DNA of 64,000 bases, taken from NCBI GenBank assembly GCA_029978905.1, contig JAPOIM010000012.1, positions 333 through 64,332 of the forward strand, given 5' to 3'. Within the stretch, counting starts at the first letter, position 1. Every line of letters starts with the position of its first letter. Source of the stretch: Planctomycetota bacterium. Lineage in GTDB: Bacteria; Planctomycetota; Planctomycetia; Pirellulales; UBA1268. The notes under the pieces are model-generated. The model saw only the letters and a list, made by a program, of their open reading frames with translations, had not been told where the DNA came from and ran no database searches. Shown here piece by piece: positions 8,576 to 41,820 of the stretch. The position numbers and the translations under genes are program-made.

Positions 8576-8595
8576 CACACTCCCCACCAAAAAAG

Positions 8596-8668
8596 TACCC
8601 CCGACAGGGATCGAACCTGTGACCTACGGTTTAGGAAACCGTCGCTCTATCCACTGAGCTACGGGGGC
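8596..8668 (-). tRNA. tRNA-Arg: tRNA-Arg (anticodon CCT)
   Basis: The reverse complement folds as a 73-nt cloverleaf: GCCCCCG TA GCTC AGTGGATA GAGC G ACGGT TTCCTAA ACCGT AGGTC ACAGG TTCGATC CCTGT CGGGGGT A. The anticodon loop TT-CCT-AA gives anticodon CCT. CCA is not encoded. Confidence 0.9.
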
Positions 8669-14803: not shown

Positions 14804-15445
14804 CTATGCCGCCGCACGCCTCGCCTTGTAGAGGTAGGGGTTCATCGTGGGGTCGTTGTACATCTTCATCTGCCGATAGACCCGCAACGGGCGAGATCCG
14901 GCGAAGATTTCGGCGAGCAGGCGGTCGATCGCCTCGGTGAGGTGCTGCCGCTGCAAATCGAGAACAGCCATCTTGTGGGCCACCTTCTCAAGGTGGTCCT
15001 GGGAGGCGTCGGTGCGCTCCAGCTGTTCGCGCATGTGGTAGCGGCGAAGCTCGAGAATCGAGAGCCGGTCGAGGGCGGCCCCAGGTGTTTCGGTGGAGGC
15101 TGGTGCGTCGGCCGGTGCTTCCACGCCACGTCGGGCGAGTTCCCCCACGAGCCAGTCGTCGGTCTTTTCGATCGCATCGTTGCGGGCCTGGTTGTAGCCG
15201 TCGATGGCACGCTTCACTTCGGCGATCTTGGTGTCGCTCACATCGGGTGAGCGAGCGATGTCTTCCTCATGCCACAGTAGGAAGTTGAAGCGGTGGTTGT
15301 CGCAGATGCGGCCGGCCAGCCCCTCGTGCGAATGCCCGGGCTCCACGGAATGCCACTCGGCGACAAGCTGCTCAAGGAGATCTGCCAAGTCAGCCGCGGA
15401 GGCTGGGGGGGCATCGTGTGTGGAAACGGTGGAGAGGATCGTCAT
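14804..15445 (-). CDS. DUF4254 domain-containing protein
   Basis: ATG at 15445 lies 6 nt after AAGGAG. The protein is all-helical. NHRFNFLLWHEEDIAR and LDRLSILELRRYHM resemble the conserved DUF4254 motifs. It is the last gene of the ACP/KS operon. Confidence 0.65.
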   Translation of the reverse strand: MTILSTVSTHDAPPASAADLADLLEQLVAEWHSVEPGHSHEGLAGRICDNHRFNFLLWHEEDIARSPDVSDTKIAEVKRAIDGYNQARNDAIEKTDDWLVGELARRGVEAPADAPASTETPGAALDRLSILELRRYHMREQLERTDASQDHLEKVAHKMAVLDLQRQHLTEAIDRLLAEIFAGSRPLRVYRQMKMYNDPTMNPYLYKARRAAA

Positions 15446-15473
15446 CGGTGACTCCTTCTTGGGGAAACAGGTG

Positions 15474-16718
15474 TTAGGCGGCCTTCAGGACGAGGCAGAG
15501 GTTAGAACCTCCGAACCCGAAGGAGTTGCTCAGAGCCGTGCGGACATTGGCCGGACGGGCTTCGTGAGCCACATGGTTGAGCGAGCACGCCTCGTCGGGA
15601 TCGTCGAGGTTGATCGTTGGGGGAATCATCTGCGTCTCAAACGCAGCAAGGCAGGCGACGGCTTCGAAGGCCGAGGCACCGCTCACGAGGTGGCCCGACA
15701 TGCTCTTAGTCGAACTGACCGGTACGGCGTCGGCGGCATCACCGAGCGCACTCCGAATCGCAGCTGCTTCCGCAGCGTCTCCCACGGGTGTGCCTGGGGC
15801 ATGGGCGTTGACGTAATCGATTTCATGCGGGTCGACGCCTGCGTCGGCAAGTGCCATCTCAATCGCACGGGTCGCTTGAGCCGGCTCCGCACAGGGGGCG
15901 ACCATATGGGTTGCGTCACTGGTCATGCCAGCACCTGCAAGCAAGCCATACACCTTGCCACTGCGGCGGCGGGCCGCCGTTTCCGGCTCGAGCAGGAACA
16001 TCGCCGCGCCCTCTCCCATCACGAATCCGTCGCGCTGCCGGTCGAATGGCCGCGAGGCTTTCGTCGGGTCGTCGGTTCGACGTGAAAGAGCCCGAAGGTT
16101 GTAAAAGGCTGCGAGGGCTACAGGGCTGATGATGTCTCCGCCGCCGGCCAAGCAGGCATCGACAAGCCCCAGGGAAAGCCAGCGATGTGCGACAGCCAAC
16201 GCGTAGCCGCTTGATGCACAGGCCGCTGCAACCGTGATGCAGGGGCCGGTCAGGCCGAGTTGGGTTCCGAGGCGAGTCGCAATGCATGGCATCCGGCCGC
16301 CGTGAAACACACCCTGTCCATCTGCCAAGAAATCGGCTTCCCAGGTTTTCAGCTGCTCGGCCCCGAGTCCCAGAACCAAGCCGATTCGGGGCGCAGAGGC
16401 TTGCACGCCGTTTGCGGACCGCAAGGCACGAGCTGTCGCCGAACCACAGAGTTGTTCAAGCCGATGTGCCTCGGCTTTCGCTCCATTGCCAAGCTGAATC
16501 GGCAAAAGCCCGGCCTCTTCAGGGATCATGCTCACCGGTGCGGCGAACTGCCGCAGAGGACGCGATGCGTCGGCGAGGTCAATCTCACAAACACCCGAAC
16601 GGCCAGCCATTAAGGCGTCGCTCACGGTTGCGAAATCATTTCCAAGCGGGGTCACCATGCCCAGGCCGGTAATGGCGACGGGAGCACGGGGCTCGTGGCT
16701 GGAAGGTGTCTCGATCAT
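15474..16718 (-). CDS. beta-ketoacyl-[ACP] synthase, FabF/KAS II-like
   Basis: VAITGLGMVTPLG at the N-terminus. The active-site Cys is in TVAAACASSG (codon 16218-16220). His motifs are YVNAHAPGTPVGD and SSTKSMSGHLVSGAS, and the C-terminus has FGFGGSN. The ATG overlaps the upstream stop (ATGA at 16715-16718). Confidence 0.9.
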   Translation of the reverse strand: MIETPSSHEPRAPVAITGLGMVTPLGNDFATVSDALMAGRSGVCEIDLADASRPLRQFAAPVSMIPEEAGLLPIQLGNGAKAEAHRLEQLCGSATARALRSANGVQASAPRIGLVLGLGAEQLKTWEADFLADGQGVFHGGRMPCIATRLGTQLGLTGPCITVAAACASSGYALAVAHRWLSLGLVDACLAGGGDIISPVALAAFYNLRALSRRTDDPTKASRPFDRQRDGFVMGEGAAMFLLEPETAARRRSGKVYGLLAGAGMTSDATHMVAPCAEPAQATRAIEMALADAGVDPHEIDYVNAHAPGTPVGDAAEAAAIRSALGDAADAVPVSSTKSMSGHLVSGASAFEAVACLAAFETQMIPPTINLDDPDEACSLNHVAHEARPANVRTALSNSFGFGGSNLCLVLKAA

Positions 16719-17452
16719 GCGGCCTCCGGTTGAGAGCAGTCTCTCTCGGTCGCAACGAGACAGCGGTGGATGCGATCAGCGAGCCGTCCGTCGGTCTGCA
16801 CCGATGCGTTGAGATCAAGCCAGGCACGAGCGTGGCGAGCGAGAGTCGACTTGGGGTTGGCGACTAGCAGGGCCAAGGCTTCAACAGTCGCTTCCGCGGT
16901 CACTCCTTCGGTTTGGATGGGGTCGCCTTCACTGTCGATTGTGGGCTCTGAGGTGACCTGTGTTGCCACGAGCCACCACCCATCCACGCCCGGTGTGTTT
17001 GCCAAGGCTACGAGGGTGAGCAGTCCGTCTGAGAGTGCCTCCACACCGCCGCCGACACCGAGTGAGGGACCATGCATACCAAGGCCCACACTCACTGCGG
17101 CTGCCATCGCATGCAGGGAAGCATGCGGCACGATATGCGTTGACACAGTCACCCCGCCGCCTTCCGCATATTTCGAAAGCGTACGGCTGCTGGCGATTCG
17201 GCCCAGCCGGCAGGGAGCCGCGATCACGCCATGGCTTTGACACGAGAGCCCCTCAAGCGAGGCGATGCCCTGCTGCACGGCGCGCACCGCAACCACAGAC
17301 TGTTCATCCGCGTGACGCAGAAAACGCTTGGGGAGCGGAGGTGTATTGTCTGGGTCAGCCGCGGATCGCAGGTCGACGACAGCTGCAAGCGGCACCTCCA
17401 TGGCAGCGTGCGCCACTACAGGAAGCCGGCATGGCTGAAGCACGCTCGTCAC
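16715..17452 (-). CDS. beta-ketoacyl synthase N-terminal-half-like protein lacking the catalytic Cys
   Basis: 245 aa with a GTG start at 17452; an alternative ATG lies at 17401. LGMHGPSLGVGGGVEAL aligns to LGLTGPCITVAAACASS of the downstream KS and places Val at the Cys position. There is no C-terminal His-containing half. Confidence 0.6.
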   Translation of the reverse strand: MTSVLQPCRLPVVAHAAMEVPLAAVVDLRSAADPDNTPPLPKRFLRHADEQSVVAVRAVQQGIASLEGLSCQSHGVIAAPCRLGRIASSRTLSKYAEGGGVTVSTHIVPHASLHAMAAAVSVGLGMHGPSLGVGGGVEALSDGLLTLVALANTPGVDGWWLVATQVTSEPTIDSEGDPIQTEGVTAEATVEALALLVANPKSTLARHARAWLDLNASVQTDGRLADRIHRCLVATERDCSQPEAA

Positions 17453-17487
17453 GTCCGCCCCATCGGTTTGTGAAGGTGAAAAAAAGA

Positions 17488-17754
17488 TCAGGCGGCCTTC
17501 CGGTTCGGCTTGGCCGCGATTTTTCCTTCAAGCATGGAGAGCAGGTCGCCCACGGTGGTGATGCTCTCGAGCAGTTCGGTTTCGATCTGAATGCTGAAAT
17601 GGCTCTCGATGTGGAGCACGAGCCCGGCCATGTCGAGAGAATCGAGGTTCAGCCCCTCACGCAGCGAGGTTTCATCCTCAAGCTGTTCGTAGGTCTCGCC
17701 GGTTTCCTTCTCGAGGAGGTCGAGGACGATGGCGGTGAGTTCCTGGCGATCCAT
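17488..17754 (-). CDS. acyl carrier protein
   Basis: The start was re-picked at ATG 17754, downstream of AAGGAG. GLNLDSLDMAGLVLHIE contains the DSL phosphopantetheine-attachment serine (codon 17638-17640). The protein is acidic, about 88 aa. Confidence 0.85.
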   Translation of the reverse strand: MDRQELTAIVLDLLEKETGETYEQLEDETSLREGLNLDSLDMAGLVLHIESHFSIQIETELLESITTVGDLLSMLEGKIAAKPNRKAA

Positions 17755-17864
17755 GATGGGTCGACTCCTTTGTGTGTAAGGCACCTGCCCCAGCCCGCCT
17801 CAGGGCCGCTGGGGACGTGTGAGGGTCGGGGAGACTAGCGAAAAGCCGCCGACGAGCGAAGGGC

Positions 17865-17887
17865 AAAAAACCCCGAGAAACCGGGAG
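17865..17887 (-). terminator. intrinsic terminator candidate downstream of the UDP-xylose synthase gene
   Basis: The minus-strand RNA reads CCCGG-UUUC-UCGGG, a 5-bp stem including one G.U pair, followed by G + UUUUUU. A second GC hairpin (CGCCGCC...GGCGG) precedes it at about 17891-17912. Confidence 0.5.
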
Positions 17888-17956: not shown

Positions 17957-18931
17957 CTAGTAGTTCGGGGTGGGGGCGCGGAAGTCGTCGAGGTTGACGG
18001 AGCGAAACCAGTCGATGGTTTTGGCGAGGCCCTCGCGGAGAGGCACGGTGGGCTGCCAGCCAAGTCGCGACTCGGCGAGCGAGATGTCGGGTCGGCGTCG
18101 CTCGGGGTCGTCGACTGGCAGCGGCTTTTCGATCAGCGGCGACGAGGAGCCGGTGAGTTCGAGGGTGAGTTCGGCAAGCTGGCGAATGGTGAACTCACCT
18201 GGATTGCCTATGTTCACTGGTCCGGGAAAGTCGTCGGGGCCATTCATCATCCGGATCATTCCCTCCACGAGATCGTCGCGGTAGCAGAAGCTCCGCGTTT
18301 GGGAGCCGTTGCCGAAGAGGGTGATCGGTTCGCCGGCCAGGGCTTGGCGGATGAAGTTGGACACCACGCGGCCATCGAAGGGGTGCATGCGAGGACCGTA
18401 GGTGTTGAAGATCCGTACGATCCGCACGTTGACGCCGTTGTGGCGGGAGTAGTCCATGAACAGGGTTTCGGCCGCGCGTTTTCCCTCGTCGTAGCAGGCT
18501 CGCGGTCCAATCGGATTCACCGCGCCGCGGTAGTGCTCCGGCTGGGGGTGCACTTCGGGGTCGCCGTAGACCTCGCTGGTCGATGCCTGCAGCACCTTGG
18601 CTCGGCACCGCTTGGCCATCCCAAGCACGTTGATCGCCCCCATCACTGATGTCTTCATCGTCTTGATGGGATTGAACTGGTAATGCCCAGGAGCGGCGGG
18701 GCAGGCGAGGTTGTAGATCTCATCCACCTCCAGCCAAATCGGGTGGATGATGTCGTGCCGAACCAGCTCAAAGTTCTTGCGGCTGAGGAGATGGGTGACG
18801 TTGGTCTTTTGGCTGGTGAAGAAGTTGTCGACGCAGATCACGTCGTGGCCTTCGTCCACCAGTCGCTCGCAAAGGTGGCTCCCGAGAAACCCCGCGCCAC
18901 CGGTGACAAGAATCCGCTTGAGAACTGCCAT
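17957..18931 (-). CDS. UDP-glucuronate decarboxylase (UDP-xylose synthase), SDR family
   Basis: [18 protein letters not shown] is the Rossmann motif, followed by [12 protein letters not shown]. The catalytic YDEGKR and other motifs are collinear with UXS-type enzymes. 324 aa. Confidence 0.85.
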
Positions 18932-19073
18932 GTGGTTCTTTCTGCGATTGCGGGAACGGAAGAGTGCCAGCGTAGTGATGGGGGCACCGCGAAAAACGCG
19001 GCGGTGGGATCACCCCTGAGGTAGACTCGCAGTCTGGCGGATGCCTACAAGTTTCGAAACCCCGGGAGATCCC

Positions 19074-20030
19074 ATGCCAGACCGCATCCTTCGCCGTGAC
19101 CTTCTCCAAGGACTTGCCGCAGGTGGAATCTTTACGGGAGGCGCGATCGCGGCAGGGCTGACCGCGGGGTCGGCGCGGACTGCCGAGGACGGTGAACGCG
19201 GCGCGCTCGGTGGCATTCGCCAGTCGATTGTGTACTGGTGCTTCCACGCTCCCAACGACAACCGCGAGATTCCCAGTTGGGATATCGAGCGGATGTGCGA
19301 AGTGGCGGTGGAACTCGGCTGCCAGTCGATCGAACTCGCTCCGCGGGAAACGTGGGACACGATCAAGAAGCATGGGCTGACCTCCGCGATCACCTCCAAC
19401 GGGTCGTTCAAAAAGGGCTTCAACAACCCCCGCTACCATGACGAACTGGTGGCCCGCACCACCGACGCGATCGATGCCGCCGCAGACGCAGGCTTTCCGT
19501 CGGTGATCACGTTCACGGGCTTTAAATGGCGCGATGCGGATGATCCAAACAGTGGTGAGATCCCTCTCGACGAGGCGGCCGACAACTGCGTGGCTGGGCT
19601 GCGGCGCGTCATCGAGCATGCGGAGAAGCGCGGTGTGAATATCTGCATCGAGCACCTCAACAGCCGAGACAGCTCGCATCCCATGAAGGGGCACCCGGGC
19701 TACCAGGGAGACGACGTCGACTGGCTGGCCGATGTGGTGCGGAAAGTTGGCTCGGAACGGATGAAGATCCTGTTCGACATCTACCACGTGCAGATCATGC
19801 ACGGCGATGTGATGCGGCGGCTCGAGGAGCACCATGATGTGATCGGGCATGTGCACACCGCCGGCAATCCGGGGCGTGGCGAACTCGACGACCGGCAAGA
19901 GATCTACTACCCAGCGATCATGCGGAAGCTCGTAGAGCTCAAGTATTCCGGCTTTGTCGGCCAGGAGTTCATCCCCACGCGCGATCCCTACGCCGGACTC
20001 AGTCAGGCAGTCGCCGCCTGCGACGTCTGA
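19074..20030 (+). CDS. hydroxypyruvate isomerase-like / xylose-isomerase-fold TIM-barrel protein with Tat signal
   Basis: The start was re-picked at ATG 19074 (MPDRILRRDLLQGLAAGGIF, a twin-arginine leader). NICIEHLN, FDIYHVQIMHGD and IGHVHTAG are typical AP-endonuclease-2/Hyi-family metal-ligand regions. Confidence 0.7.
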   Translation: MPDRILRRDLLQGLAAGGIFTGGAIAAGLTAGSARTAEDGERGALGGIRQSIVYWCFHAPNDNREIPSWDIERMCEVAVELGCQSIELAPRETWDTIKKHGLTSAITSNGSFKKGFNNPRYHDELVARTTDAIDAAADAGFPSVITFTGFKWRDADDPNSGEIPLDEAADNCVAGLRRVIEHAEKRGVNICIEHLNSRDSSHPMKGHPGYQGDDVDWLADVVRKVGSERMKILFDIYHVQIMHGDVMRRLEEHHDVIGHVHTAGNPGRGELDDRQEIYYPAIMRKLVELKYSGFVGQEFIPTRDPYAGLSQAVAACDV

Positions 20031-21427
20031 GGTCTGCTGTCGACAAGAACCATCCGCAGGTCGGCCACGTTGGTCCCGGTGGGGCCCGTGTGGATCAGGC
20101 CTCCGGCAGCCGCGAGCAGGGGGGAGGCATCGCAGCGTTGCACAGCATCTGCGAGCGAGAGCCCGCGTGTGGTGATCGTCGCGGCGACCTCTGCATCGGC
20201 AACACCACCGGCGGCCTGCGTGGGCCCGTCTTCGCCATCGGTGCCCAGGCTCGCGACGAGCAGTCCCTCCGGCCACCCCTCCTGGCGGCATGCTGAGGCG
20301 AGGGCAGCTACCACGGACTGCTGGTTGCGCCCGCCGAGGCCATGCCCTTCGGGCAGGTGCACCGTCGCTTCACCCCCTTCCAGGATCGCCAGCCGTTCCC
20401 GCAAGCCGGAGTGGACCGCTTCGCATCCTTCGGCGGCGAGCCTCGCTCCCACTTCGTCAGCGGTTTCGCTGCTGGCGGGATTCGCGGGCCGCACGCGCAG
20501 CTGATATCCGCGGCGCGAGGCTTCTGCTGCGGCGGCGTCGAGGGCGGTGTCGTTTGAGGCGAGCAGGTGGTGGCTGACCTTGCAGCCACGTGGCGTGCGC
20601 CAGCGGCCAGGGGCGGAATCGCTTTGCGGCTCTCTCTGGCCTGCTGGCGAGGAGGCTGCCGCGGTCTGCAGAAAGGCCACGATCGCAGGGGCGATGCCGG
20701 CCGTCGTGGCTCCAAATCGCTCGAGGATGGCCAGTGCATCGGCTGGGGCCACGAGCACAGGCATGCAGGGCCCGGAACTGATCGTCTCGAGCGGGTCTCC
20801 GATGACGTCGGAGATCGCAAGCACCACCAGCCGCCCCGCCCCGCAGCCGCGGGCCATGCCCCCAGCCTTCACGTCGCTCAGGGCCTGCCGCACCTTGTTG
20901 AGTTCACGGATCGTGGCGCCGTGCTCGGAGAGCCAGCGGGTGGTGGCAGCGATCTCCTCCAACGGAATGCCGGGCCGTGGCGCGGTGAGGATCGCTGAGC
21001 CTCCTCCCGTGACCACGGCAATGGCGAGGTCATCGTGCGAGAGGGCTGAGAGCATGGCAAGCATCTCTCGCGTGGCCGCCACGCAGGCCTCGGTCGGCTC
21101 GTTGCGCCCGGCGGGCCGCACCTCGCGGACCTCCAGTCGTGGAAGCTGCACGCCGCAGCCTTCAGGCACACCGATCAGACCTGAGACAGGAAGCGTCGTG
21201 GGGAGCAGTTGCTCCAGGCCCGTTGCCAGGCCAGCCGCGGCTTTCCCTCCACCCACCACCACCATCCGCCGAGCGTGTCCGAGGTGAACTGGTGGATCAA
21301 GAGGCGCGCGATCCAACAGCAGTTGATCGCCCTCCATGGTCAGTCGCTCGGTCACCAGTCGCTCGGGAGCGACGGCCGCGAAGGCAGCCTGCCAGAGAGC
21401 CTCAGCATCTTCGCGGAGTGTGGCCAT
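20003..21427 (-). CDS. glycerate 2-kinase / hydroxypyruvate reductase-like (DUF4147 + MOFRL)
   Basis: VVVGGGKAAAGLA is the N-terminal DUF4147 motif. The C-terminal region reads GTDGEDGPT...TGPTGTNVADL (MOFRL). 474 aa. Confidence 0.75.
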   Translation of the reverse strand: MATLREDAEALWQAAFAAVAPERLVTERLTMEGDQLLLDRAPLDPPVHLGHARRMVVVGGGKAAAGLATGLEQLLPTTLPVSGLIGVPEGCGVQLPRLEVREVRPAGRNEPTEACVAATREMLAMLSALSHDDLAIAVVTGGGSAILTAPRPGIPLEEIAATTRWLSEHGATIRELNKVRQALSDVKAGGMARGCGAGRLVVLAISDVIGDPLETISSGPCMPVLVAPADALAILERFGATTAGIAPAIVAFLQTAAASSPAGQREPQSDSAPGRWRTPRGCKVSHHLLASNDTALDAAAAEASRRGYQLRVRPANPASSETADEVGARLAAEGCEAVHSGLRERLAILEGGEATVHLPEGHGLGGRNQQSVVAALASACRQEGWPEGLLVASLGTDGEDGPTQAAGGVADAEVAATITTRGLSLADAVQRCDASPLLAAAGGLIHTGPTGTNVADLRMVLVDSRPQTSQAATA

Positions 21428-21454: not shown

Positions 21455-22312
21455 CTACGTGCCATCAAATGGTGGAGGGATGTTCTTCGGATCGAAGCGA
21501 GAAAGGTCGATCCCGCCTCGGGCTTCCTCTTCCAGCAACTTCACCCGCATCTCCAACCGCTCGAGCCTCCGCGCGAGCAAGGCTGGGGTCTCGTCGGGAG
21601 GCGCGGCTCGTTTCGGTCGAGGGACGATCGGGTAGCCCATTTGCCGTTGGAGTGCGGCAAAGAAATAGAGTGGATCTTTCCCGCGGTTGGCCCGGGCGAT
21701 GCGTCCTTCGCGATTGCCGAAGAGAATCGGTCGGTCGGGCACCGGCGGTTCACGACCGGCAGCCGTCGCAGCACGTGCCTCGAGCCGCCAGTATTCCTCG
21801 CTTCGCACGTAGACCAGGTCGGCCAAGTCGATGAACCCGACCTGTCGGCTGACAGCCTCAATCCACTCCTGCCAGCCCTGATCAAAGATCGGATCCTTGC
21901 CGATCGCCGTCAGGCCATGGCCGTAGTCAAGCCGATTCCGCGAGAGGCATTCAAAGCGGTAGAAGAAGAGTCCTTGCGGCGACGCGTCTTCGCTGCGGTA
22001 GATCGCTTCCTGCTCCAGAATCGCCAAAGCGATCCGCATGTCGAAGCGGCCTTCTTCCTCTTCCGCCTCGCTGATCACGAAGGTCTGGAAAGGCGTGAAA
22101 TAGTGAGAGAGGCGGGCCATCGCCGTCGAGAGCGTGCCCACGAGTTTCATTTCGCCGACGAGGTAGTCGATCGCCATCGGCAGTTTTGTGGTGGCGAGGA
22201 CCTCTTCGCCGATCAGCTTTAAGGCTTCTTGGGCAGCAACCCCCTCCGCCATTCGGCCAGCGAAAGCGCGAAAAAAGTGGGCCTGCTCGACGAACTCTTC
22301 CCGGTTGAGCAT
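21455..22312 (-). CDS. conserved hypothetical protein
   Basis: The start was re-picked at ATG 22312, after GAGGGGAAG. 285 aa with a helical N-terminal half and a basic, Pro-rich tail. The stop is 27 nt upstream of the glycerate kinase start on the same strand. No family is recognised. Confidence 0.55.
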   Translation of the reverse strand: MLNREEFVEQAHFFRAFAGRMAEGVAAQEALKLIGEEVLATTKLPMAIDYLVGEMKLVGTLSTAMARLSHYFTPFQTFVISEAEEEEGRFDMRIALAILEQEAIYRSEDASPQGLFFYRFECLSRNRLDYGHGLTAIGKDPIFDQGWQEWIEAVSRQVGFIDLADLVYVRSEEYWRLEARAATAAGREPPVPDRPILFGNREGRIARANRGKDPLYFFAALQRQMGYPIVPRPKRAAPPDETPALLARRLERLEMRVKLLEEEARGGIDLSRFDPKNIPPPFDGT

Positions 22313-22501
22313 CTTCCCCTCACGACCGTCACCACACGCCACCGAAGCCACGGCATCGCGGCCAAGATCCCTGCTCGCCGCTATTCCGCGGCATGCGGCA
22401 TCCTATACTGAGGATGGACTGAGCGACCGGTTCGTGGTCCGCAGGCCTTATTTCCACGCCTTTCGCGACTTGCTCCCTTTTAAGGAACACGACACACCGA
22501 C

Positions 22502-29064: not shown

Positions 29065-30138
29065 ATGGCCGAACCTTTTCTTTCAGTTGATCGCCTGCAG
29101 ACGCACTTCCCCATCCGTCGAGGCGTGCTGCGCCGAACCGTCGGAGCGGTGCAGGCGGTCGATGGAGTGAGCTTCGCGGTGGAGCGGGGAGAGACGCTCG
29201 GTCTCGTGGGGGAGAGTGGCTGCGGCAAGACCACGGTGGGCAGGAGCCTGTTGAGGCTGGTGGAGCCAACTGGCGGTGAGGTGACGCTCGGTGGCGTCGA
29301 TGTGCGACGTGTCTCGGGAGGCAAGCTGCGGGCGCTGCGTCGGCGGATGCAGGTGGTCTTTCAGGATCCCTACGGGTCGCTCAACCCACGCATGACCGTG
29401 CGAGGCATTCTTGAAGAAGGCCTGATCGTGCACCGCATGGGATCGGCGTCGGAGCGCGTTGAGCGGATGCAGCGTGCCCTTGAGCGGACGGGCATGCCGG
29501 CCGACGCCCTGCGGCGGTATCCGCACGAGTTTTCTGGGGGGCAGCGTCAGCGAATCGCGATTGCCCGGGCGCTTGTCTTGGAGCCGGAGTTTCTTGTGCT
29601 CGACGAGCCAGTCTCTGCCCTCGACGTCTCGATTCAGGCGCAGGTGGTCAACCTGCTCGTCGACCTTCGCCGTGATTTGGGGCTGACATTCCTCTTCATC
29701 TCGCACGATTTGTCGGTGGTTGAGTACCTCTCTGATCGCGTGGCGGTGATGTATCTCGGCCGGTTCGTGGAAACCGCGTCGGCCGCCAAGCTCTACCGTG
29801 AGCCGTTGCACCCCTACACGCAGGCCCTGTTTTCTGCCGTGCCGTCCGTCGACCCCGAGCGGCGACGAAACCGGATCATTCTTCCTGGCGACGTGCCTAG
29901 TCCCTCAAAACCGCCGTCTGGATGCCGTTTCCATCCGCGTTGCCCTCTGGCGGAATCGGTCTGCCGTACGGTGGATCCTCCCGAAGTCGCCATCGACGGC
30001 CATCGCGTCCACTGCCATGTGGCCGCCCGCGAACTGGAGCAGGCCGGGGGAGATGTCGCGGCTGCATCGCGGCAAATCGCAGGGATGATTGCCGCACAGA
30101 CCTCCTCCGCGAGAGCGGTCCCCTCAGCCAGCGTGTAG
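29065..30138 (+). CDS. ABC transporter ATP-binding protein (DppF/OppF-like)
   Basis: ATG at 29065; the ORF-track start at 29035 is TTG overlapping the upstream stop. Motifs are [29 protein letters not shown] and [10 protein letters not shown]. Confidence 0.88.
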
Positions 30139-30199
30139 ACTTTTCTCGTGCGGAGTCGATAGACCCGTTATCGAGAGTTGGCCGGACGGAGGATCTGTC

Positions 30200-31075
30200 A
30201 TGCGTGAAGCCGCAGCCTTGCGAAGCCTTGTGATGCTCGGGGTGTTGCTTGGAGTGAGTCTTGTTTCTGCGGACGTGCAAGCCGAGCCCATCGGGAGTGG
30301 TGGCTCGCGTGCCCCTCTGGAGCTGACCACCCGCGGCATGCTCCTGCAGCGTTGGGACCGCAACCGTGACGGAAAGATTGACCTTGGGGAAGCCGAGATG
30401 GCCCGCGTCCAGATGCGGCGCGAGCGGATGGAGCGGGAAGAGAAGTCGCGTGTCGACCCGCTGACCGGACGCCGCTCCGACGACCTCTTTTCCACTGACG
30501 ATGAAGATGGCGGAGACTTCTTCCGCCGTCGCAGCCCACAGAATCCAGGACCGACCGCCGCGCCCACCGCGCCGGGGCTGGCAACGTCGCCGCAGCCCTC
30601 ACGGGGCAATGGCGTGGCCGAGAGCGATCCCGCCGCGGCATCCCCGACACAGACCCTCCTTGGCCCGCCAACAGGGCTCCCGCCAGCGGCGGGCGGCCGC
30701 GCCGCACCCAACGCGCCGCTCTCATCGGCGGCTCGAGTGCTGCCTCAGCAGACCGGTCGATCCACATCAGCCGGGTTCAACTCGGCGGCGCCGATCGGCG
30801 GCTCCCGTCCGTTTGAGCGTCCCACGGCGCCGCTCGGCACGGCCGTCACCGGGGGAATCCGCGCGGGGGCCCCGGCGGTGCGTCCCGGATATGGCACGTC
30901 AGGGACCACGAGTGACCTCAATGCGGGCCGGTTGCTCGGTGGGGCTCCTCTGACCGGTGGACGCCCGCTTCCGGGAAGCAGCCAGCCTGGTGCGACGACG
31001 CCGCGCGGATCGACGCCTCGTGGTGGCACCTCGCCTCGCCCGGGTTCGAGCCCACCGGAGTTTTACGGTCCGTGA
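30200..31075 (+). CDS. secreted EF-hand protein with long Pro/Gly/Ala/Ser/Arg-rich low-complexity tail
   Basis: ATG at 30200 follows GGACGGAGGA. The signal is LRSLVMLGVLLGVSLVSADVQA. A canonical EF loop, DRNRDGKIDLGE, is present. About 190 aa of low complexity follow. Confidence 0.6.
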   Translation: MREAAALRSLVMLGVLLGVSLVSADVQAEPIGSGGSRAPLELTTRGMLLQRWDRNRDGKIDLGEAEMARVQMRRERMEREEKSRVDPLTGRRSDDLFSTDDEDGGDFFRRRSPQNPGPTAAPTAPGLATSPQPSRGNGVAESDPAAASPTQTLLGPPTGLPPAAGGRAAPNAPLSSAARVLPQQTGRSTSAGFNSAAPIGGSRPFERPTAPLGTAVTGGIRAGAPAVRPGYGTSGTTSDLNAGRLLGGAPLTGGRPLPGSSQPGATTPRGSTPRGGTSPRPGSSPPEFYGP

Positions 31076-31428: not shown

Positions 31429-31587
31429 GGTCGTGGTTCAGATCAGCCGCCGTCGTGGCCGATAGGACCGAAGGAACCGTTGCAAGCCGCGCATGCGGTG
31501 CCCGCTCTTCGACCGGGCGTGGGCAGCAGCGGCCTCCCTCGATTCAAGCGACAGAGCATGACCCGCGGAAGGGGTGAGAGGCAGACT

Positions 31588-32664
31588 ATGTCCTATTCGT
31601 CTATTCGGAAGATGTTCGTGGCAGCGGTGGTCATCAGCCAGGCTGCCCTGCTTTCACAGACTGCCGAAGCGATCGGCCCCTTCTTCAAGAAAAGCCCTCC
31701 TCCGAAGAGCCAGGTGGTGATGCGGCCCAACGCGCCCGCCCTGCCGAACCGGCCACCGATGGTGCCTGGCACGGGAACCCTCGCCAAGGGCATCAGCGAC
31801 GACTTTGAGGATGAGAACTGGAACTGGTTCTACAACCATCCCAAGAGTTCCGAGGAACAGGACGAGCGGATGCGAAGCCCACTGGGGCGGAGTGCCAATC
31901 GGGTTTGGTTTGAGGGGCCGAAGCGTGGCACCCCCGATACCGTGCAGCGGATCGCGCTGCCGGCTCCGGGCTTGGAAGGGAGCGAGCATGGGCTCCTGAT
32001 CGCCACCCGGCACGCCGGTGTGCCTGGCTATGCGTCGGGCAAGATGATGCAGGACGACCTGATTTTTGACATGAAGCGCATGCTGCGGGGAGGTGGCATG
32101 AATGTCGCCGACAGCCCTTCGGTGGTGGTCCGCGTGTACATGCCCCCATTCGACCAGTGGGAAAACAGGAGCGGGCCGTCCTTTGGTTTCCGCACCGGTT
32201 GCTACACGCACACGATCATCACCGGTGAAGACCATCCCAATCGCGGCGAGTATGGCCTCGAAGAGTATTGGCCGGGCATGTTCATCTGCTTCGAAAACGG
32301 TGACGACGCTCGCTACAGCGAAGACGGTGCCTACATCCGCGTGCGGAGTGGCCGCAGCGGTGGCGAGATCATGGGGCCCAAGATCACCGAACTCGGCTGG
32401 TGGACGCTGGGTATCGCCTTCACGCCCGATGGAGTGGTGCACTACTTCGCCAGCCCGGGCGTGGACGACCTGACCGAAGAGGATCACATCACGTCGCAGT
32501 ATCCCTACGGATACCGAACAGAGACGTTTAAGACCTTCTTCTTCAATGTCTGCACGCAAGACGACGGCAAGACCTGGAGCACCCCGTGGGTCATTGACGA
32601 CCCCAAGGTGTTCTTCGTGCCACGGACGCAGATGGCCCGCCAGCCTCAGCCGGATCGCCGGTAA
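31588..32664 (+). CDS. secreted hypothetical protein
   Basis: The start was re-picked at ATG 31588, after AAGGGGTGAGAGG. The signal is MFVAAVVISQAALLSQTAEA. A Pro-rich linker is followed by a globular, beta-rich-looking domain. No family is recognised. Confidence 0.6.
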   Translation: MSYSSIRKMFVAAVVISQAALLSQTAEAIGPFFKKSPPPKSQVVMRPNAPALPNRPPMVPGTGTLAKGISDDFEDENWNWFYNHPKSSEEQDERMRSPLGRSANRVWFEGPKRGTPDTVQRIALPAPGLEGSEHGLLIATRHAGVPGYASGKMMQDDLIFDMKRMLRGGGMNVADSPSVVVRVYMPPFDQWENRSGPSFGFRTGCYTHTIITGEDHPNRGEYGLEEYWPGMFICFENGDDARYSEDGAYIRVRSGRSGGEIMGPKITELGWWTLGIAFTPDGVVHYFASPGVDDLTEEDHITSQYPYGYRTETFKTFFFNVCTQDDGKTWSTPWVIDDPKVFFVPRTQMARQPQPDRR

Positions 32665-37660: not shown

Positions 37661-38560
37661 ATGCCCCCCTCCACCAGTCTTGCTCGCGGAGCCGATGGTT
37701 CGCCGTTTGGATCCACGGCGGCCCGGCCCGCGAGCAAGGGATGCGAAGAGCCAGTGACCGCTGCTGAGCGGTGGGCCGGCTACGACGCCCTGATGCTTGG
37801 CTTTAGCCTGCTCGCCATCGGCATGCTGGTGGTGGGCGTGGCGGTGGAACTCGGCCCGTCGAGCCAGTCGATTTTGGCGTATGCCGACACGGCCGTGTGT
37901 CTCGTCTTTCTCACCGATTTCATCGTGAGCCTGATGCGGGCTGAGAATCGCTGGCAGTACATGGTCCGTTGGGGCTGGCTCGACTTGATTTCTTCGATCC
38001 CCGTCTTGGATGCGGCGAGGTGGGGGCGGGCGGCGCGAGTCGTTCGCATCCTCCGCGTGATCCGCGGGGTGAAGGCGACGAGGATGATCGCCGCCATGCT
38101 CTTTCAGCAGCGGGCGCTCAACGCGGTGATGGCTGGTGCTTTTGTGGCGATCCTGGCGATCTTTGCCAGTTCGTTTGCGATCCTTTCCTTTGAGGAGAAC
38201 GCAGGCGGAACGATCAAGAACGCTGACGATGCTGTGTGGTGGGCCATCTGCACGGTGACCACCGTGGGCTATGGCGACTACTACCCCGTCACCTGGGAAG
38301 GACGGATCGTCGCTTTCTTTTTGATGATCACCGGCGCTGCCACGTTTGGGGCCCTGGCTGGGCTGCTCGCGAGCTGGTTCATGGGCACCGAAGACGCGGC
38401 GGACAACGCGGAGTTGCGGCAGGTTCGCCAGGAACTTGCCGCCGTTCGCGTGTTGCTGGAAGAACGGCTCGGCAGCGAGAGTTCGTTCAAGGGGAGGCTT
38501 GCCCCTGAAGAATCAGGGCGCGACGACTTCGCGGCGTGGCCTCGCAGCAAGGCGGCGTGA
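37661..38560 (+). CDS. voltage-gated-type potassium channel (6-TM, Kv/KvAP-like)
   Basis: The start was re-picked at ATG 37661. The S4-like helix RVVRILRVIRGVKATR has a basic residue every third position (about 38035-38085). The selectivity filter TVGYGD lies at 38261-38278, flanked by S5 and S6 helices. Confidence 0.85.
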   Translation: MPPSTSLARGADGSPFGSTAARPASKGCEEPVTAAERWAGYDALMLGFSLLAIGMLVVGVAVELGPSSQSILAYADTAVCLVFLTDFIVSLMRAENRWQYMVRWGWLDLISSIPVLDAARWGRAARVVRILRVIRGVKATRMIAAMLFQQRALNAVMAGAFVAILAIFASSFAILSFEENAGGTIKNADDAVWWAICTVTTVGYGDYYPVTWEGRIVAFFLMITGAATFGALAGLLASWFMGTEDAADNAELRQVRQELAAVRVLLEERLGSESSFKGRLAPEESGRDDFAAWPRSKAA

Positions 38561-39389
38561 CCCGCTTAGCCACGACGATGGCGCGAGCCTCACGATTGAT
38601 GCCCACAAGACTGCCCGGCGTGGCCGGGTCTGCGGCGATGCCCTGGCCCGGAAACGGACAGTCGAGCGTTTCGACCAGTTCGAGCGTGGTGGCGTCTGGG
38701 GCTGCAGGAATCCGCAACCGGTAGAGCACCGGATAGTGGTGGTGGCTGGCGAGGATCGTGTCGCCATCAAAGACGCCCCCCGACGCGCTCATGCCGTCGA
38801 AGTCTGCGATCACCTCGGCTGGGAAAAACAGCCGACGCGCTTCGCTCGTGAACGTGTCGTCGGTGTACTCGATCAGCACGCTCTGCGCGTTCTCGTCGCC
38901 ATACCAGGCGAAGCAGCACCACCAGCGGTTGTTGTGCCGCACGCACCACACCAGGCTTCCCGGAGGTTCTGGGAAAACATGGTGCACGGCGAGCGTGTTG
39001 GTCGCGGGGTCGAAGACGCGAATGTCCGACTCGTGTGGCGTCTCCGGATAGTTGGAGTGGGCCGCATACAGCTTGCCGTCGTGGAAGTAGCCACTGTTGA
39101 GGTGTTCGGTGCCCTCCGCGGAGGCCGTCGCCAGCAACTCGCCGGAGTGGCGATCGTAGGTGGCAACTGTGGTGTTCGAGATGGCGTAGAGATGGGCTTC
39201 GTCCGCGGCGGCAGCCTGGGTGGCGTGGGGCGAGGGGATCCGTGCGATTTCGAGATAGCCCGCGACTGTCTGCAACTGTGAGGTCGCTGACGGCGGGGCG
39301 ATCTGCTCGGCGGCCACACACACGGTGGGCAGCACCAGCAGGCCCAGTGCGAGCGAGAGCAGGCCGCGTGAGAGGAGGGGGCGTCGCAT
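38487..39389 (-). CDS. secreted hypothetical protein (beta-rich)
   Basis: The signal is MRRPLLSRGLLSLALGLLVLPTVCVAA. 300 aa. The 3' end overlaps the K+ channel 3' end by 74 nt. No family is recognised. Confidence 0.55.
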   Translation of the reverse strand: MRRPLLSRGLLSLALGLLVLPTVCVAAEQIAPPSATSQLQTVAGYLEIARIPSPHATQAAAADEAHLYAISNTTVATYDRHSGELLATASAEGTEHLNSGYFHDGKLYAAHSNYPETPHESDIRVFDPATNTLAVHHVFPEPPGSLVWCVRHNNRWWCCFAWYGDENAQSVLIEYTDDTFTSEARRLFFPAEVIADFDGMSASGGVFDGDTILASHHHYPVLYRLRIPAAPDATTLELVETLDCPFPGQGIAADPATPGSLVGINREARAIVVAKRVTPPCCEATPRSRRALILQGQASP

Positions 39390-39496
39390 GGCGAAATCCG
39401 TTCTTTCAGAGGAGGAGCATCGAGTAGGATTTTAGTCGAGCGAGGAATCCGACGCGATTACTCAAGCGAAGTGAGTTCTCTTGTGGAGGGGGTGGC

Positions 39497-40759
39497 ATGA
39501 AGCGAGCGTGGTGCTGGGTCGTCTGCGCCGGTGTGGTGATGGCGGGCCTCACGGCACGCGCGCAGGCTGCGGAACCTCTGCGGTATGTCCTCACCGACAC
39601 CACGAGTGGAACATGGCTCGAGAGCTTTGATCTGGCCGCCTCCGACCTCGACGGAGAACTTGCTGAAGGTCAGCACGGGTGGAGCGTCCGCAAGACAACC
39701 CTTCGCGGTGGCGTGCAAGACGGCGTCGACCTGATCACGCTCGACAACGGCCTGCTCACGATCCGTGTGGTGCCCACGCGCGGCATGAGCATTGTCGATG
39801 TGCGGCAGGGAGATTTTCGGCTCGGCTGGGAGTCGCCCGTCAAAGAGCTTGTGAATCCCGCGTACATGAATCTCGAGAGCCGCGGCGGCTTGGGCTGGTT
39901 GCAGGGCTTCAACGAATGGCTTGTCCGCTGTGGGCTTGAGTTTGCAGGCCATCCGGGCACCGATGAGGTGGTGGACAACACTGGAGCTACGTCGAGCGTG
40001 CCGCTCACATTGCATGGTCGCATCGGCAATCTGCCTGCGTCGCGGGTGGAACTCGTGATCGAACAAGAGCCCCCGTATCGCTTGCGTCTGCGTGGCGTTG
40101 TGCACGAGCGGTGGTTCATGGGGGCGAAGCTGGAACTGGCTACGGAGATCTCGACGGAGCCCGGCTCGGATCGGCTGCTGATCGAGGATGCGGTGACCAA
40201 CCGGGGCGCGACATCGCAAGAGTTTCAGCTGATTTACCATGCCAACTATGGGCAGCCCCTGCTTGAGGAAAATGCCACAGTGGTCACGGCGGCAAAACGC
40301 ATCGCACCGATGAACGATCATGCGGCGAAGGCAATCGGACAGTACGACACGTACCGCAAACCGGAAGCAGGCTTCGTGGAGGAGGTGTTTCTCGTCTGGC
40401 CGTACGCCGATCAGGAGGGCCGCACCAGCGTGATGCTGAAAGACGCGGCAGGAGAGCGGGCGGCGACGATCCGTTGGTCGACGGAGCAACTCCCCTATCT
40501 CACCATCTGGAAGAACACGGCTGCCGTGGAGGATGGCTACGTGACCGGTCTTGAACCCGCCACGGGCTTCCCGTTTAACCGCAGCGTCGAAAGGGCTGCG
40601 GGTCGTGTGCCGAAACTTGACGCGGGGCAGACCCAGCGGTTCTCGGTAGAGTTCGGCTTGCATCAGGGTCGCGAGGCGGTGGCCAGGGAAGCGGCTGCGA
40701 TCAAGGCCATCCAGAACGGCCGGCCAACCCAGACAGACGACGTGCCTCCAGCGGAGTGA
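39497..40759 (+). CDS. DUF4432 / aldose 1-epimerase-like protein with Sec signal
   Basis: The signal is MKRAWCWVVCAGVVMAGLTARAQA. VVPTRGMSIVDV, GWLQGFNEWLVRCGLEFAGHPG and LTLHGRIGNLPA are characteristic of the DUF4432 mutarotase-like family. Confidence 0.7.
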   Translation: MKRAWCWVVCAGVVMAGLTARAQAAEPLRYVLTDTTSGTWLESFDLAASDLDGELAEGQHGWSVRKTTLRGGVQDGVDLITLDNGLLTIRVVPTRGMSIVDVRQGDFRLGWESPVKELVNPAYMNLESRGGLGWLQGFNEWLVRCGLEFAGHPGTDEVVDNTGATSSVPLTLHGRIGNLPASRVELVIEQEPPYRLRLRGVVHERWFMGAKLELATEISTEPGSDRLLIEDAVTNRGATSQEFQLIYHANYGQPLLEENATVVTAAKRIAPMNDHAAKAIGQYDTYRKPEAGFVEEVFLVWPYADQEGRTSVMLKDAAGERAATIRWSTEQLPYLTIWKNTAAVEDGYVTGLEPATGFPFNRSVERAAGRVPKLDAGQTQRFSVEFGLHQGREAVAREAAAIKAIQNGRPTQTDDVPPAE

Positions 40760-40822
40760 TCCGCTCACCCAGCGAGGGCTTTTGCCGTTCTCGCTTCCAG
40801 ACACATCACAGGAGCAATGACG

Positions 40823-41803
40823 ATGAAGAGAACAACCTGGGCGGCGGTGGCGCTCATTGCGGCTTGCGTGGTGGGGTGCGGCGGCGGTGACAGTGGCGAT
40901 CAGAAAGACGCCACTCCTGCGTCGGCATCGAAGGGCACGATCGGTGTGTCGGTGCTGACGATGACCAACCCATTCTTCAAAACGATCGCCGACACGATCA
41001 CGCAGGAGGCCGCCGCGCACGGCTATGGCACGGCGATCACCAGTGGTGAGTTTGATGTGGCCAAACAGCAGAATCAGGTGAAGGACTTCATCGTGGCAGG
41101 CTGCTCGGCGATCGTGCTGTGCCCCTGTGACTCGCGATCGATTGGCCCGGCGATCGCGGAGGCGAACGCGGCAGGGATCCCCGTGTTTACTGCAGACATC
41201 GCCTGCCTGGCGGACGGCGTTGATGTCGTGTCCCACATTGCGAGCGACAACCTCGGTGGTGGTCGAGAGGCAGCCAAGGCGATGATCGAAGCCCTCGGCG
41301 AGGGGGGAGGGGAAGTGGTCGTGCTCGACTTTAAGCAGGCGGAGTCGTGCATTCTCCGCGTGCAGGGGTTCAAGGAAGTGATTGAGACCCATAACGCCGA
41401 GCACGCCGACGCTGCGATCACGATCGTTTCGGAGTTGCCCGGTGATGGAAAGAAGGACCAGGGCTTCAAGTGCACCGAAGATGCCCTGCAGGCTCATCCG
41501 AATGTTGCCGGCATTTTTGCCATCAACGATCCGTCCGCCCTGGGGGCGCGGGCGGCCCTCGAAAAGGCCGGCAAGGCGGATGACGTGGTGATCGTGGGCT
41601 TTGACGGCCAACTCGATGGCAAGCAAGCGATTCTGGAAGGCAAGATCTATGCCGACCCGATCCAGTTTCCCGACCGCATCGCTTCGATGACGGTGGATTC
41701 CATCGTTCGGTACTTCGCGGGTGACGAAGTGGCCACCCAGCAGTTGATCCCCTGCGAACTCTACCGCCAGGCTGACGCCGAGGCGGATGAGGCCCTCAAG
41801 TAG
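40823..41803 (+). CDS. sugar ABC transporter substrate-binding lipoprotein (RbsB-like, PBP type I)
   Basis: ATG at 40823, 8 nt after GGAG; the ORF-track ATG is at 40817. The lipobox is LIAACVVGC. IGVSVLTMTNPFFKTIAD, GIPVFTADI and VGFDGQ are typical RbsB-like motifs. Confidence 0.85.
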   Translation: MKRTTWAAVALIAACVVGCGGGDSGDQKDATPASASKGTIGVSVLTMTNPFFKTIADTITQEAAAHGYGTAITSGEFDVAKQQNQVKDFIVAGCSAIVLCPCDSRSIGPAIAEANAAGIPVFTADIACLADGVDVVSHIASDNLGGGREAAKAMIEALGEGGGEVVVLDFKQAESCILRVQGFKEVIETHNAEHADAAITIVSELPGDGKKDQGFKCTEDALQAHPNVAGIFAINDPSALGARAALEKAGKADDVVIVGFDGQLDGKQAILEGKIYADPIQFPDRIASMTVDSIVRYFAGDEVATQQLIPCELYRQADAEADEALK

Positions 41804-41820
41804 GTCACGGCGCGGATTCG

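Follow-up and report, generated by a model that had tools for sequence, protein, structure and literature searches.

In aryl-polyene (APE) biosynthesis, the ketosynthase (KS) ApeO has as its partner ApeC, a protein of about half its size that has a single thiolase domain, the first, and lacks the catalytic residues (PMC8358021). ApeC of A. baumannii has been solved as PDB entry 7F28 (PMC8358021). In rhizobia, the genes acpXL-fabZXL-fabF2XL-fabF1XL-adhA2XL-lpxXL combine a dedicated acyl carrier protein (ACP) with two adjacent KS genes for the very-long-chain fatty acid of lipid A. Type II fatty acid synthesis (FAS II) is partly borrowed, and a late acyltransferase delivers the chain (PMC11901934). 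Here we describe a locus that recalls both systems: a minus-strand unit of four genes, encoding an ACP, a half-length KS-like protein (half-KS), a full-length KS, and a DUF4254 protein. It lies in a 64,000-nucleotide stretch of contig JAPOIM010000012.1 (assembly GCA_029978905.1) from a Planctomycetota bacterium of the Pirellulales, which we refer to as the window. The literature on planctomycetes and aryl polyenes held nothing specific to this cluster, and DUF4254 is sparsely mentioned in the literature.

Results

A four-gene module is conserved in planctomycetes

Together the four genes make up a dedicated and syntenic module, conserved across many uncultured planctomycetes, an arrangement well beyond chance. 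In the window, the genes, the element upstream of them and the adjacent gene are arranged as follows.

14804-15445, minus strand: DUF4254 protein, 213 aa; PF14063 at E=1.5e-50, 171.2 bits against a gathering threshold of 27 bits
15474-16718, minus strand: FabF-derived beta-ketoacyl-ACP synthase (KS), 414 aa; PF00109 and PF02801
16715-17452, minus strand: half-KS (KS-like), 245 aa, GTG start; a single thiolase half, without the Cys and without the His-His
17488-17784, minus strand: open reading frame (ORF) of the ACP, with the likely gene at 17488-17754; 88 aa, DSL phosphopantetheine-attachment motif; PF00550 at E=1.9e-8
17832-17870, minus strand: upstream promoter-like or regulatory motif, TTTTTTG-CC-CTTCGC-N15-CGCTAGTCT; conserved across loci
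17957-18931, minus strand: UDP-glucuronate decarboxylase (UDP-xylose synthase, UXS), a short-chain dehydrogenase/reductase (SDR); 415 bits to human UXS1

A first-pass annotation, made from the letters and translated ORFs, had placed four tightly packed ORFs here on the minus strand, and our check of ORFs and sequence agrees. The ATGA shared by the half-KS stop and the KS start (16715-16718) and the AAGGAG sites of the ACP and DUF4254 genes, which it had also reported, are seen in the sequence. For the ACP, the likeliest start is the ATG at 17754, and the resulting 88 aa match the length of called homologs; its AAGGAG ribosome-binding site (17770-17765) lies 10 nt upstream of this ATG. The DUF4254 gene begins 28 nt past the KS stop and has its own AAGGAG at 15457-15452. 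A Pfam search confirmed the domains expected of three of the proteins (PF14063, PF00109 with PF02801, and PF00550) and left the half-KS without any hit.

We scanned one genome per GTDB species for related loci. This gave 151 relatives, of which the best 80 were used, nearly all of them metagenome-assembled genomes (MAGs) of Planctomycetota/Pirellulales; six-frame ORFs of the relatives' loci were searched with the window proteins. The order UXS, ACP, half-KS, KS, DUF4254 proved strongly conserved in these 80 species-level loci; the earlier reading of the locus depended on conservation of the last four genes. The ACP gene was directly upstream of the half-KS gene in 67 of 69 loci, and the DUF4254 gene directly downstream of the KS gene in 56 of 61. 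The half-KS/KS junction was ATGA in 62 of 76 loci, and the two genes overlap by 1-14 nt in the majority of distant relatives examined. As a stop/start overlap of this kind is typical of stoichiometric complexes, we count it in favor of pairing between KS and half-KS. DUF4254 overlaps the KS gene in some loci and remains attached where UXS has been lost. Independent metagenome contigs share the order MOFRL, AP_endonuc_2 (on the opposite strand), UXS, ACP, a protein with no Pfam match, KS, and DUF4254. Since the genes downstream of DUF4254 vary between loci, the conserved block ends there.

The UXS assigned to the adjacent gene by the first-pass annotation stands up as a genuine UDP-glucuronate decarboxylase as far as alignment goes: residues 5-311 of the SDR align with human UXS1 structures, a similarity that is close and full length. 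Its adjacency to the operon is frequent (same strand and at most 1.5 kb upstream of the ACP in 50 of 55 loci) but not universal. In two loci, L031 and L095, UXS is missing, and the operon and the upstream motif persist. UXS is a frequent neighbor of the module and probably a separate transcription unit.

Several features of individual loci were seen along the way. In some loci (L001:9103-9513, L095:5147-5617, and L084:5006-5446), a small VanZ-like or unannotated ORF is called between the upstream gene and the ACP gene, on the opposite strand; the window, with a corresponding gap of only about 200 nt, has no such ORF. Two loci, L067 and L064, come from the same MAG, CAJBSQ01. L067 seems to lack a KS, and L064 has half-KS and KS without ACP and DUF4254, a pattern that could reflect a deletion, a second paralogous locus, or misassembly. 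Finally, MAG records labeled 'Candidatus Kuenenia stuttgartiensis', 'Chitinophaga', or 'Deltaproteobacteria' (L013-L016, L025, L027, L042, L059, L072, L008, L040, and L078) carry the Pirellulales-type gene order, and their organism labels are probably wrong.

The operon is preceded by a conserved, operon-specific motif

The region upstream of the ACP contains a motif with the consensus gttTTTG.tCTTCGcC-N13-TtCGCTAcc.TCCC in 73 of 75 non-redundant loci, with its -10-like TA 43-186 nt (median 66) upstream of the ACP ATG. The exact core of the motif was found in 52 of 97 loci, once in each and always just upstream of the ACP, and it is single in the 64-kb window. The motif is present in the window and, at the equivalent position, in loci within L004-L087 and in L095; it is kept in both loci without UXS and is missing from the type B sister loci described below. 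A metagenome-wide scan for the exact motif returned 80 loci, and in 44 the motif precedes this operon. No motif regulon was found in that scan, as 35 other hits look like chance matches, 11 of them being one repeated sequence. The spacing (TTCGCC-N17-TACCTT) is compatible with a sigma-70-like -35/-10 geometry; viewed alternatively, the motif is a direct repeat of TTCGC about 20 nt apart. A scan for sigma-70 consensus promoters gave no site. From its sequence and placement, the motif appears operon-specific and looks like a promoter or a regulator-binding site. Its conservation argues that the unit from ACP to DUF4254 has its own dedicated control region.

The first-pass annotation had separated the unit from UXS by a hairpin and T6 terminator. 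The element exists (hairpin at 17886-17871, T-run at 17870-17865), and the unit still seems to be separately controlled. However, terminator-like sites occur at chance frequency (4 found, with 3.1 expected), the hairpin shows no conservation in close relatives, and the T-run is part of the conserved upstream motif. Between the motif and the ACP ribosome-binding site there is a possible hairpin in the 5′ untranslated region (CCCCAGC...GCTGGGG, 17787-17814, minus strand). At this site, L004, L005, and L007 have different but self-complementary sequences, a hint of covariation, and distant clades have other leaders.

The half-KS belongs to a family of short proteins with a predicted KS-type fold

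The half-KS gave zero Pfam or NCBIfam matches, even at E<=10. A BLASTP comparison with the adjacent KS was not significant, the sole local match being LGMHGPSLGV/LGLTGPCITV, and hhalign of the half-KS family alignment against the single KS sequence was not significant either. The first-pass annotation had stated that the half-KS aligns with the KS and has Val in place of the catalytic Cys. The pairing itself is recovered, since Cys167 of the KS falls opposite Val137 of the half-KS under local alignment, but the BLASTP alignment lacks significance and the position is variable across the family alignment, where it is mostly Pro. A family profile was more informative. Against the PDB it matched only KS proteins, at equivalent positions and with E ~0.02, retrieving FabF-like KS, AntE, and 9s5h_C. 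The ApeC chains 6QSP_B and 7F28 were not retrieved by this profile from the PDB at E<=10.

An AlphaFold2 model of the half-KS is compact and confident (pLDDT 85, pTM 0.86). The top Foldseek matches of this model were all KS or chain-length factor (CLF) chains (E from 6e-7, probability 1.0). They include the ishigamide, anthraquinone, and actinorhodin CLFs and ApeC, the solved short CLFs among them being Xenorhabdus ApeC (6QSP_B, 238 residues) and A. baumannii ApeC (7F28). Against these two chains the model has a TM-score of ~0.5, normalized to the short chains, over ~200 columns. What is retained is the N-terminal (first) thiolase half; the whole C-terminal half is missing. The architecture predicted by the model is that of an ApeC-type short CLF, and a profile search of the PDB at E<=10 detected no sequence homology to go with it. 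The statement in the first-pass annotation that the half-KS is neither a normal FabF/FabB nor a full-length CLF misses the half-size CLFs of the ApeC type (PMC8358021; Foldseek matches 6qsp_B and 7f28). With ApeC as a structurally characterized precedent, the half-length architecture is not unclassifiable.

A protein with neither a C-terminal half nor a nucleophile could be what decay has left of a full-length KS or CLF, an outcome for which the first-pass annotation had allowed. The family tells against it. At 50% identity, an exhaustive profile search returned 790 clusters (454 with E<=1e-30), and among the 150 of the 790 that were listed all lengths were 221-347 aa. At 90% identity there were 68 clusters, nearly all of 228-315 aa, with two shorter entries. 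Four motifs are strongly kept (FLRHADEQ, GVIAAPC.AGR, VSPHIVPQ.SLHS, and HGPNLGVGGG), the frame is intact, the model is compact and confident, and the translational coupling to the KS gene is conserved. With family members short throughout, decay has next to no chance of being the explanation, and the pseudogene reading is refuted by the cluster lengths, the conserved motifs, and the conserved synteny and junction. From its model, the half-KS is best described as a conserved short protein with a predicted KS-type fold.

We consider the half-KS a putative non-catalytic, CLF-like partner of the KS. Across the relatives' genomes it is ~37-66% identical, against 68-78% for DUF4254, and fast evolution of this kind is what would be expected of a non-catalytic partner. 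The marginal sequence similarity to the KS and TM-scores of only ~0.5 would also fit a protein with a thiolase-half fold and some other role (an ACP-binding scaffold, a regulator, or an acyl-binding protein), next to a homodimeric KS; and L067 seems to hold ACP, half-KS, and DUF4254 without a KS. We regard such a role as highly improbable, as the half-KS gene is almost always directly upstream of, and overlapping, a KS gene in all context types. Moreover, the half that is kept is the N-terminal thiolase half, the same half that ApeC keeps as the partner of ApeO (PMC8358021), so the precedent applies.

The core of the module travels with lipid enzymes, and DUF4254 with glycosyltransferases

The loci considered so far, with DUF4254, are of type A. 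Two kinds of sister locus place the half-KS/KS pair, in most cases together with the ACP, in other company. In type B loci (L041, L069, L094, and L096), ACP, half-KS, and KS are directly preceded by a DUF374 gene, and DUF4254, UXS, and the motif are absent. DUF374 is the LpxJ family of late (secondary) lipid A acyltransferases (PMC6148475). In type C loci (L003, L092, L093, and L097), a divergent alpha-oxoamine synthase of the BioF/Kbl/Spt family is encoded beside half-KS and KS. A TIGR03364 (HpnW-proposed) FAD oxidoreductase or an SDR is often encoded with it; one of these loci has an ACP and a major facilitator superfamily transporter. Type C possibly represents a sphingoid-base-like or aminolipid pathway. 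Both families of partner enzyme make membrane lipids, and LpxJ and Spt-type enzymes draw on acyl-ACP. The LpxJ-linked and Spt-linked loci favor a lipid product over a polyketide. Within type A, envelope-related genes recur in the vicinity: UXS is present in most loci, the operon of L095 follows a block of glycosyltransferase (GT) and sulfotransferase genes that includes large GT genes, and L084 has BamA and GT9 nearby.

DUF4254 is a very large family, with more than 6,700 clusters passing in a search by the planctomycete query alone. Bacteroides finegoldii and Parabacteroides distasonis have the DUF4254 gene immediately before a GT9 (heptosyltransferase-family) gene in sets of the lipopolysaccharide (LPS)-core type. 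In Burkholderia multivorans (NZ_CP020399.1, L089:6878-8638), DUF4254 is the N-terminal part of a 586-aa protein whose C-terminal part is GT2; its gene lies between two GT9 genes. This fusion is a Rosetta-stone link of DUF4254 to glycosyltransferases. In Flavobacteriia, DUF4254 has been given as 'linked to RfaF' (PMC9425974).

An alignment of DUF4254 proteins from Planctomycetota, Bacteroidota, Legionella, and Burkholderia contains 41 invariant residues (for example in W..ED..R, KR.ID..NQ.R..E..D, DRLSIL, HM, and Q.KMYNDP..NP). This pattern, mostly of polar residues, suggests an enzyme more than a scaffold. Its AlphaFold model is a soluble, all-helical bundle (pLDDT 84). A search of PDB sequences gave only spurious coiled-coil matches, and Foldseek against the PDB gave none below E=0.1, with TM-scores of ~0.3, so no function was obtained from the fold. 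The first-pass annotation had expected the operon to offer DUF4254 a testable functional context, and membership of a conserved module together with the GT contexts provides one.

The KS and ACP fall outside the housekeeping FAS equivalogs

Over its full length the KS can be aligned with P. aeruginosa FabF (282 bits), and the Cys, both His, and the Lys are conserved. The Cys-His-His triad noted in the first-pass annotation is retained, and, on this alignment and the presence of both KS domains, the KS is predicted to be catalytically complete. Its best NCBIfam matches are FabF models, with scores far above any polyketide synthase (PKS) model. It nevertheless stays below the cut-offs of both the FabF equivalog (TIGR03150, 361.7 bits against 493.75) and the NF005589 subfamily (359.4 bits against 387). 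A match to the model of AmcF, an enzyme of cispentacin synthesis, is weak (223 bits against a cut-off of 325). The ACP scores 38.7 bits on TIGR00517 (AcpP), below the cut-off of 70.45. Judged by these cut-offs, KS and ACP fall outside the housekeeping FabF and AcpP equivalogs.

We compared these properties with the content of the neighborhood. A Pfam search of the large ORFs at about 200-41,800 of the window found no ketoreductase (KR), dehydratase (DH), enoylreductase, malonyl/acyl transferase, thioesterase, or AMP-ligase, in line with the first-pass claim that no reductive, transferase, or release enzyme is nearby. Among the annotated ORFs of the same region there is also no starter-activating ligase, dedicated KR/DH, second KS (ApeR), lysophospholipid acyltransferase, GT, or export gene. 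With the other genes of an aryl-polyene biosynthetic gene cluster absent from these ORFs, the operon does not belong to such a cluster.

KS, a catalytically dead KS-like partner, and an ACP are the layout of a 'minimal PKS', and the operon could in principle encode a minimal type II polyketide or aryl-polyene-like synthase that makes a pigment or secondary metabolite. The structures nearest to the half-KS model (the ishigamide, anthraquinone, and actinorhodin CLFs and ApeC) and the weak AmcF match of the KS fit this idea. We find it improbable: the cluster is without KR, DH, cyclase, aromatase, starter-loading ligase, thioesterase, or export genes, the KS scores far higher on FabF than on any PKS model, and the half-KS family profile misses ApeC at E<=10. 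In addition, the neighboring genes in the three kinds of context encode lipid or glycan enzymes rather than tailoring enzymes.

The nearness of the KS to FabF raises a different alternative, an elongation pair of FAS II, redundant or specific to certain conditions (to tune membrane fatty acids, for example), that makes no distinct product, with UXS and DUF4254 as unrelated inherited neighbors. That no tailoring, transfer, or release enzyme is encoded at about 200-41,800, that all type A loci come from one planctomycete lineage, and that the downstream flanking genes vary are consistent with such a pair. We consider it unlikely, since a dedicated, divergent ACP and a seemingly obligatory, non-catalytic partner would be foreign to housekeeping elongation. 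DUF4254, whose gene starts only 28 nt after the KS gene and overlaps it in some loci, is attached in 56 of 61 loci, even without UXS. The unit also has its own conserved control motif, and its core travels with lipid-assembly enzymes in the sister loci.

Other genes of the window

Upstream of UXS, at 19041-21427, lie a gene for a hydroxypyruvate/oxo-tetronate-isomerase-like TIM barrel (plus strand) and a DUF4147/MOFRL glycerate-kinase-like gene (minus strand), as in most loci. Because an insert of ~4 kb separates this pair from UXS in several loci, it is probably an unrelated unit. Besides this glycerate-kinase/hydroxypyruvate-isomerase-like pair, the large ORFs at about 200-41,800 with Pfam matches encode PSCyt/PSD, DUF1552, and YTV proteins (typical of planctomycetes), transporters, and RibBA. 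Four ORFs of fair size have no Pfam match: 21455-22351 (minus), 30089-31075 (plus), 31480-32664 (plus), and 38487-41842 (minus). Over the whole window, a tRNA-Arg (CCT) at 8595-8668 on the minus strand is the sole Rfam match and the only match of Rfam and ARAGORN together.

Discussion

A model that accommodates these observations, and to which we give about an even chance of being right, is that the operon is self-contained: a KS/CLF-like heterodimer with a dedicated ACP would borrow from FAS II and feed an envelope lipid, most probably LPS/lipid A or another outer-membrane glycolipid. We infer that the FabF-derived KS would be the sole catalytic condensing subunit and that the translationally coupled 245-aa protein, with its single thiolase domain, would be non-catalytic and replace the second subunit of the usual KS homodimer. 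The half-KS would shape the acyl pocket at the dimer interface and so act as a CLF, as ApeC does for ApeO. The dedicated ACP would hold the growing chain. Housekeeping FAS II would supply malonyl loading, keto-reduction, dehydration, and enoyl-reduction, as it does in part for rhizobial AcpXL. The output would be an acyl-ACP of defined chain length, segregated from the bulk AcpP pool and passed to the assembly of an envelope lipid, most probably LPS/lipid A or another outer-membrane glycolipid. The associations of DUF4254 with LPS-core genes, together with UXS, point to such a destination. DUF4254, which is predicted to be co-transcribed and enzyme-like and elsewhere accompanies LPS-core glycosyltransferases, would here most likely act on the same glycolipid acceptor.

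Several observations weigh against this model. Gene order kept within one bacterial order may partly reflect shared ancestry rather than function. Inside the operon of the window there is no lipid A or LPS gene, and the window's version of the cluster encodes no acyltransferase. In sequence, the half-KS resembles any KS only marginally (E ~0.02, and not significant by hhalign), and its Foldseek TM-scores are only ~0.5. The link between DUF4254 and GT9 comes from other phyla, with no such link at the Legionella copy, and DUF4254 is without a recognizable fold or catalytic motif. Of the first-pass proposal of a dedicated condensing module for an acyl or polyketide-like envelope lipid, the module holds and the envelope idea gains from the DUF374/LpxJ sister loci and the DUF4254-GT9 and DUF4254-GT2 associations, but nothing suggests a polyketide.

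A more specific version, which we think decidedly unlikely, is that DUF4254 is itself the consumer of the acyl-ACP, in the position that LpxJ and the Spt-like enzyme occupy in the sister loci. It would then be a new all-helical enzyme that joins an acyl or other group to the Kdo/inner core of LPS and is fed a planctomycete-specific long chain. If true, this would establish a new class of enzyme as well as a new pathway of LPS modification under a dedicated, conserved promoter element.

The new elements here are a sequence family of short CLF-like proteins that goes with a FabF scaffold, its occurrence in a new phylum, the partner DUF4254, which is likewise new, and a dedicated cis element. Half-size KS partners in about 790 clusters (at 50% identity) escape Pfam and NCBIfam, and genome mining labels them 'hypothetical'. 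The ApeC-style solution of a KS with a half-length CLF appears to occur also outside aryl-polyene clusters, on a FabF scaffold and with no detectable similarity to ApeC. Its presence beside LpxJ, an Spt-like enzyme, and DUF4254 suggests that the module is a portable supplier of acyl-ACP of defined chain length. For DUF4254, a widespread, highly conserved, and enzyme-like family, two contexts now converge: glycosyltransferases of the LPS core and a dedicated module for acyl-ACP. To judge by its title, a 1988 paper by Kerger et al., cited in PMC3422733, reports unusual long-chain hydroxy fatty acids in planctomycete lipid A, and the operon is a candidate for their genetic basis.

Comparison with known systems

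The operon can be set beside four described arrangements. With the KS-alpha/KS-beta pairs of type II PKS (actinorhodin 1TQY, ishigamide 6KXD, and AntDE 6SMO), it shares a catalytic KS next to a KS homolog without a nucleophile, translationally coupled genes, and a dedicated ACP, and these systems are among the top Foldseek matches. The CLF chains of those systems, however, have 347-402 residues and both thiolase halves, whereas the half-KS has 245 aa and one thiolase half and so is not a CLF of that type. Here, too, the partner gene comes first, and there are no cyclases or KR.

The DUF4254-GT9 pairs of Bacteroidota and Burkholderia have proteins of the same Pfam family, with the 41 invariant residues and 35-46% identity. 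There, DUF4254 precedes GTs or is fused with them, whereas here it follows the KS and has no adjacent GT.

The rhizobial acpXL genes resemble the operon in their dedicated ACP and two adjacent KS-family genes, and the sister loci with DUF374/LpxJ directly upstream of the ACP extend the likeness. In contrast, fabF2XL is full length (1197 bp) and the second KS gene here is half length. The window lacks a linked FabZ, alcohol dehydrogenase, or late acyltransferase (LpxXL/LpxJ), and a lipid A destination is only probable here.

ApeO/ApeC (PDB 6QSP and 7F28) differs from the present pair in phylum, in the other APE genes, which are absent here, and in gene order, as the partner gene here is upstream of the KS gene and overlaps it. 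The KS is FabF-like rather than ApeO-like, and the half-KS has no detectable sequence kinship to ApeC. Both systems nevertheless combine a full KS with a half-size partner that has the first thiolase domain only, and both have dedicated ACPs. The modeled resemblance of the half-KS to ApeC may reflect convergence or very remote homology.

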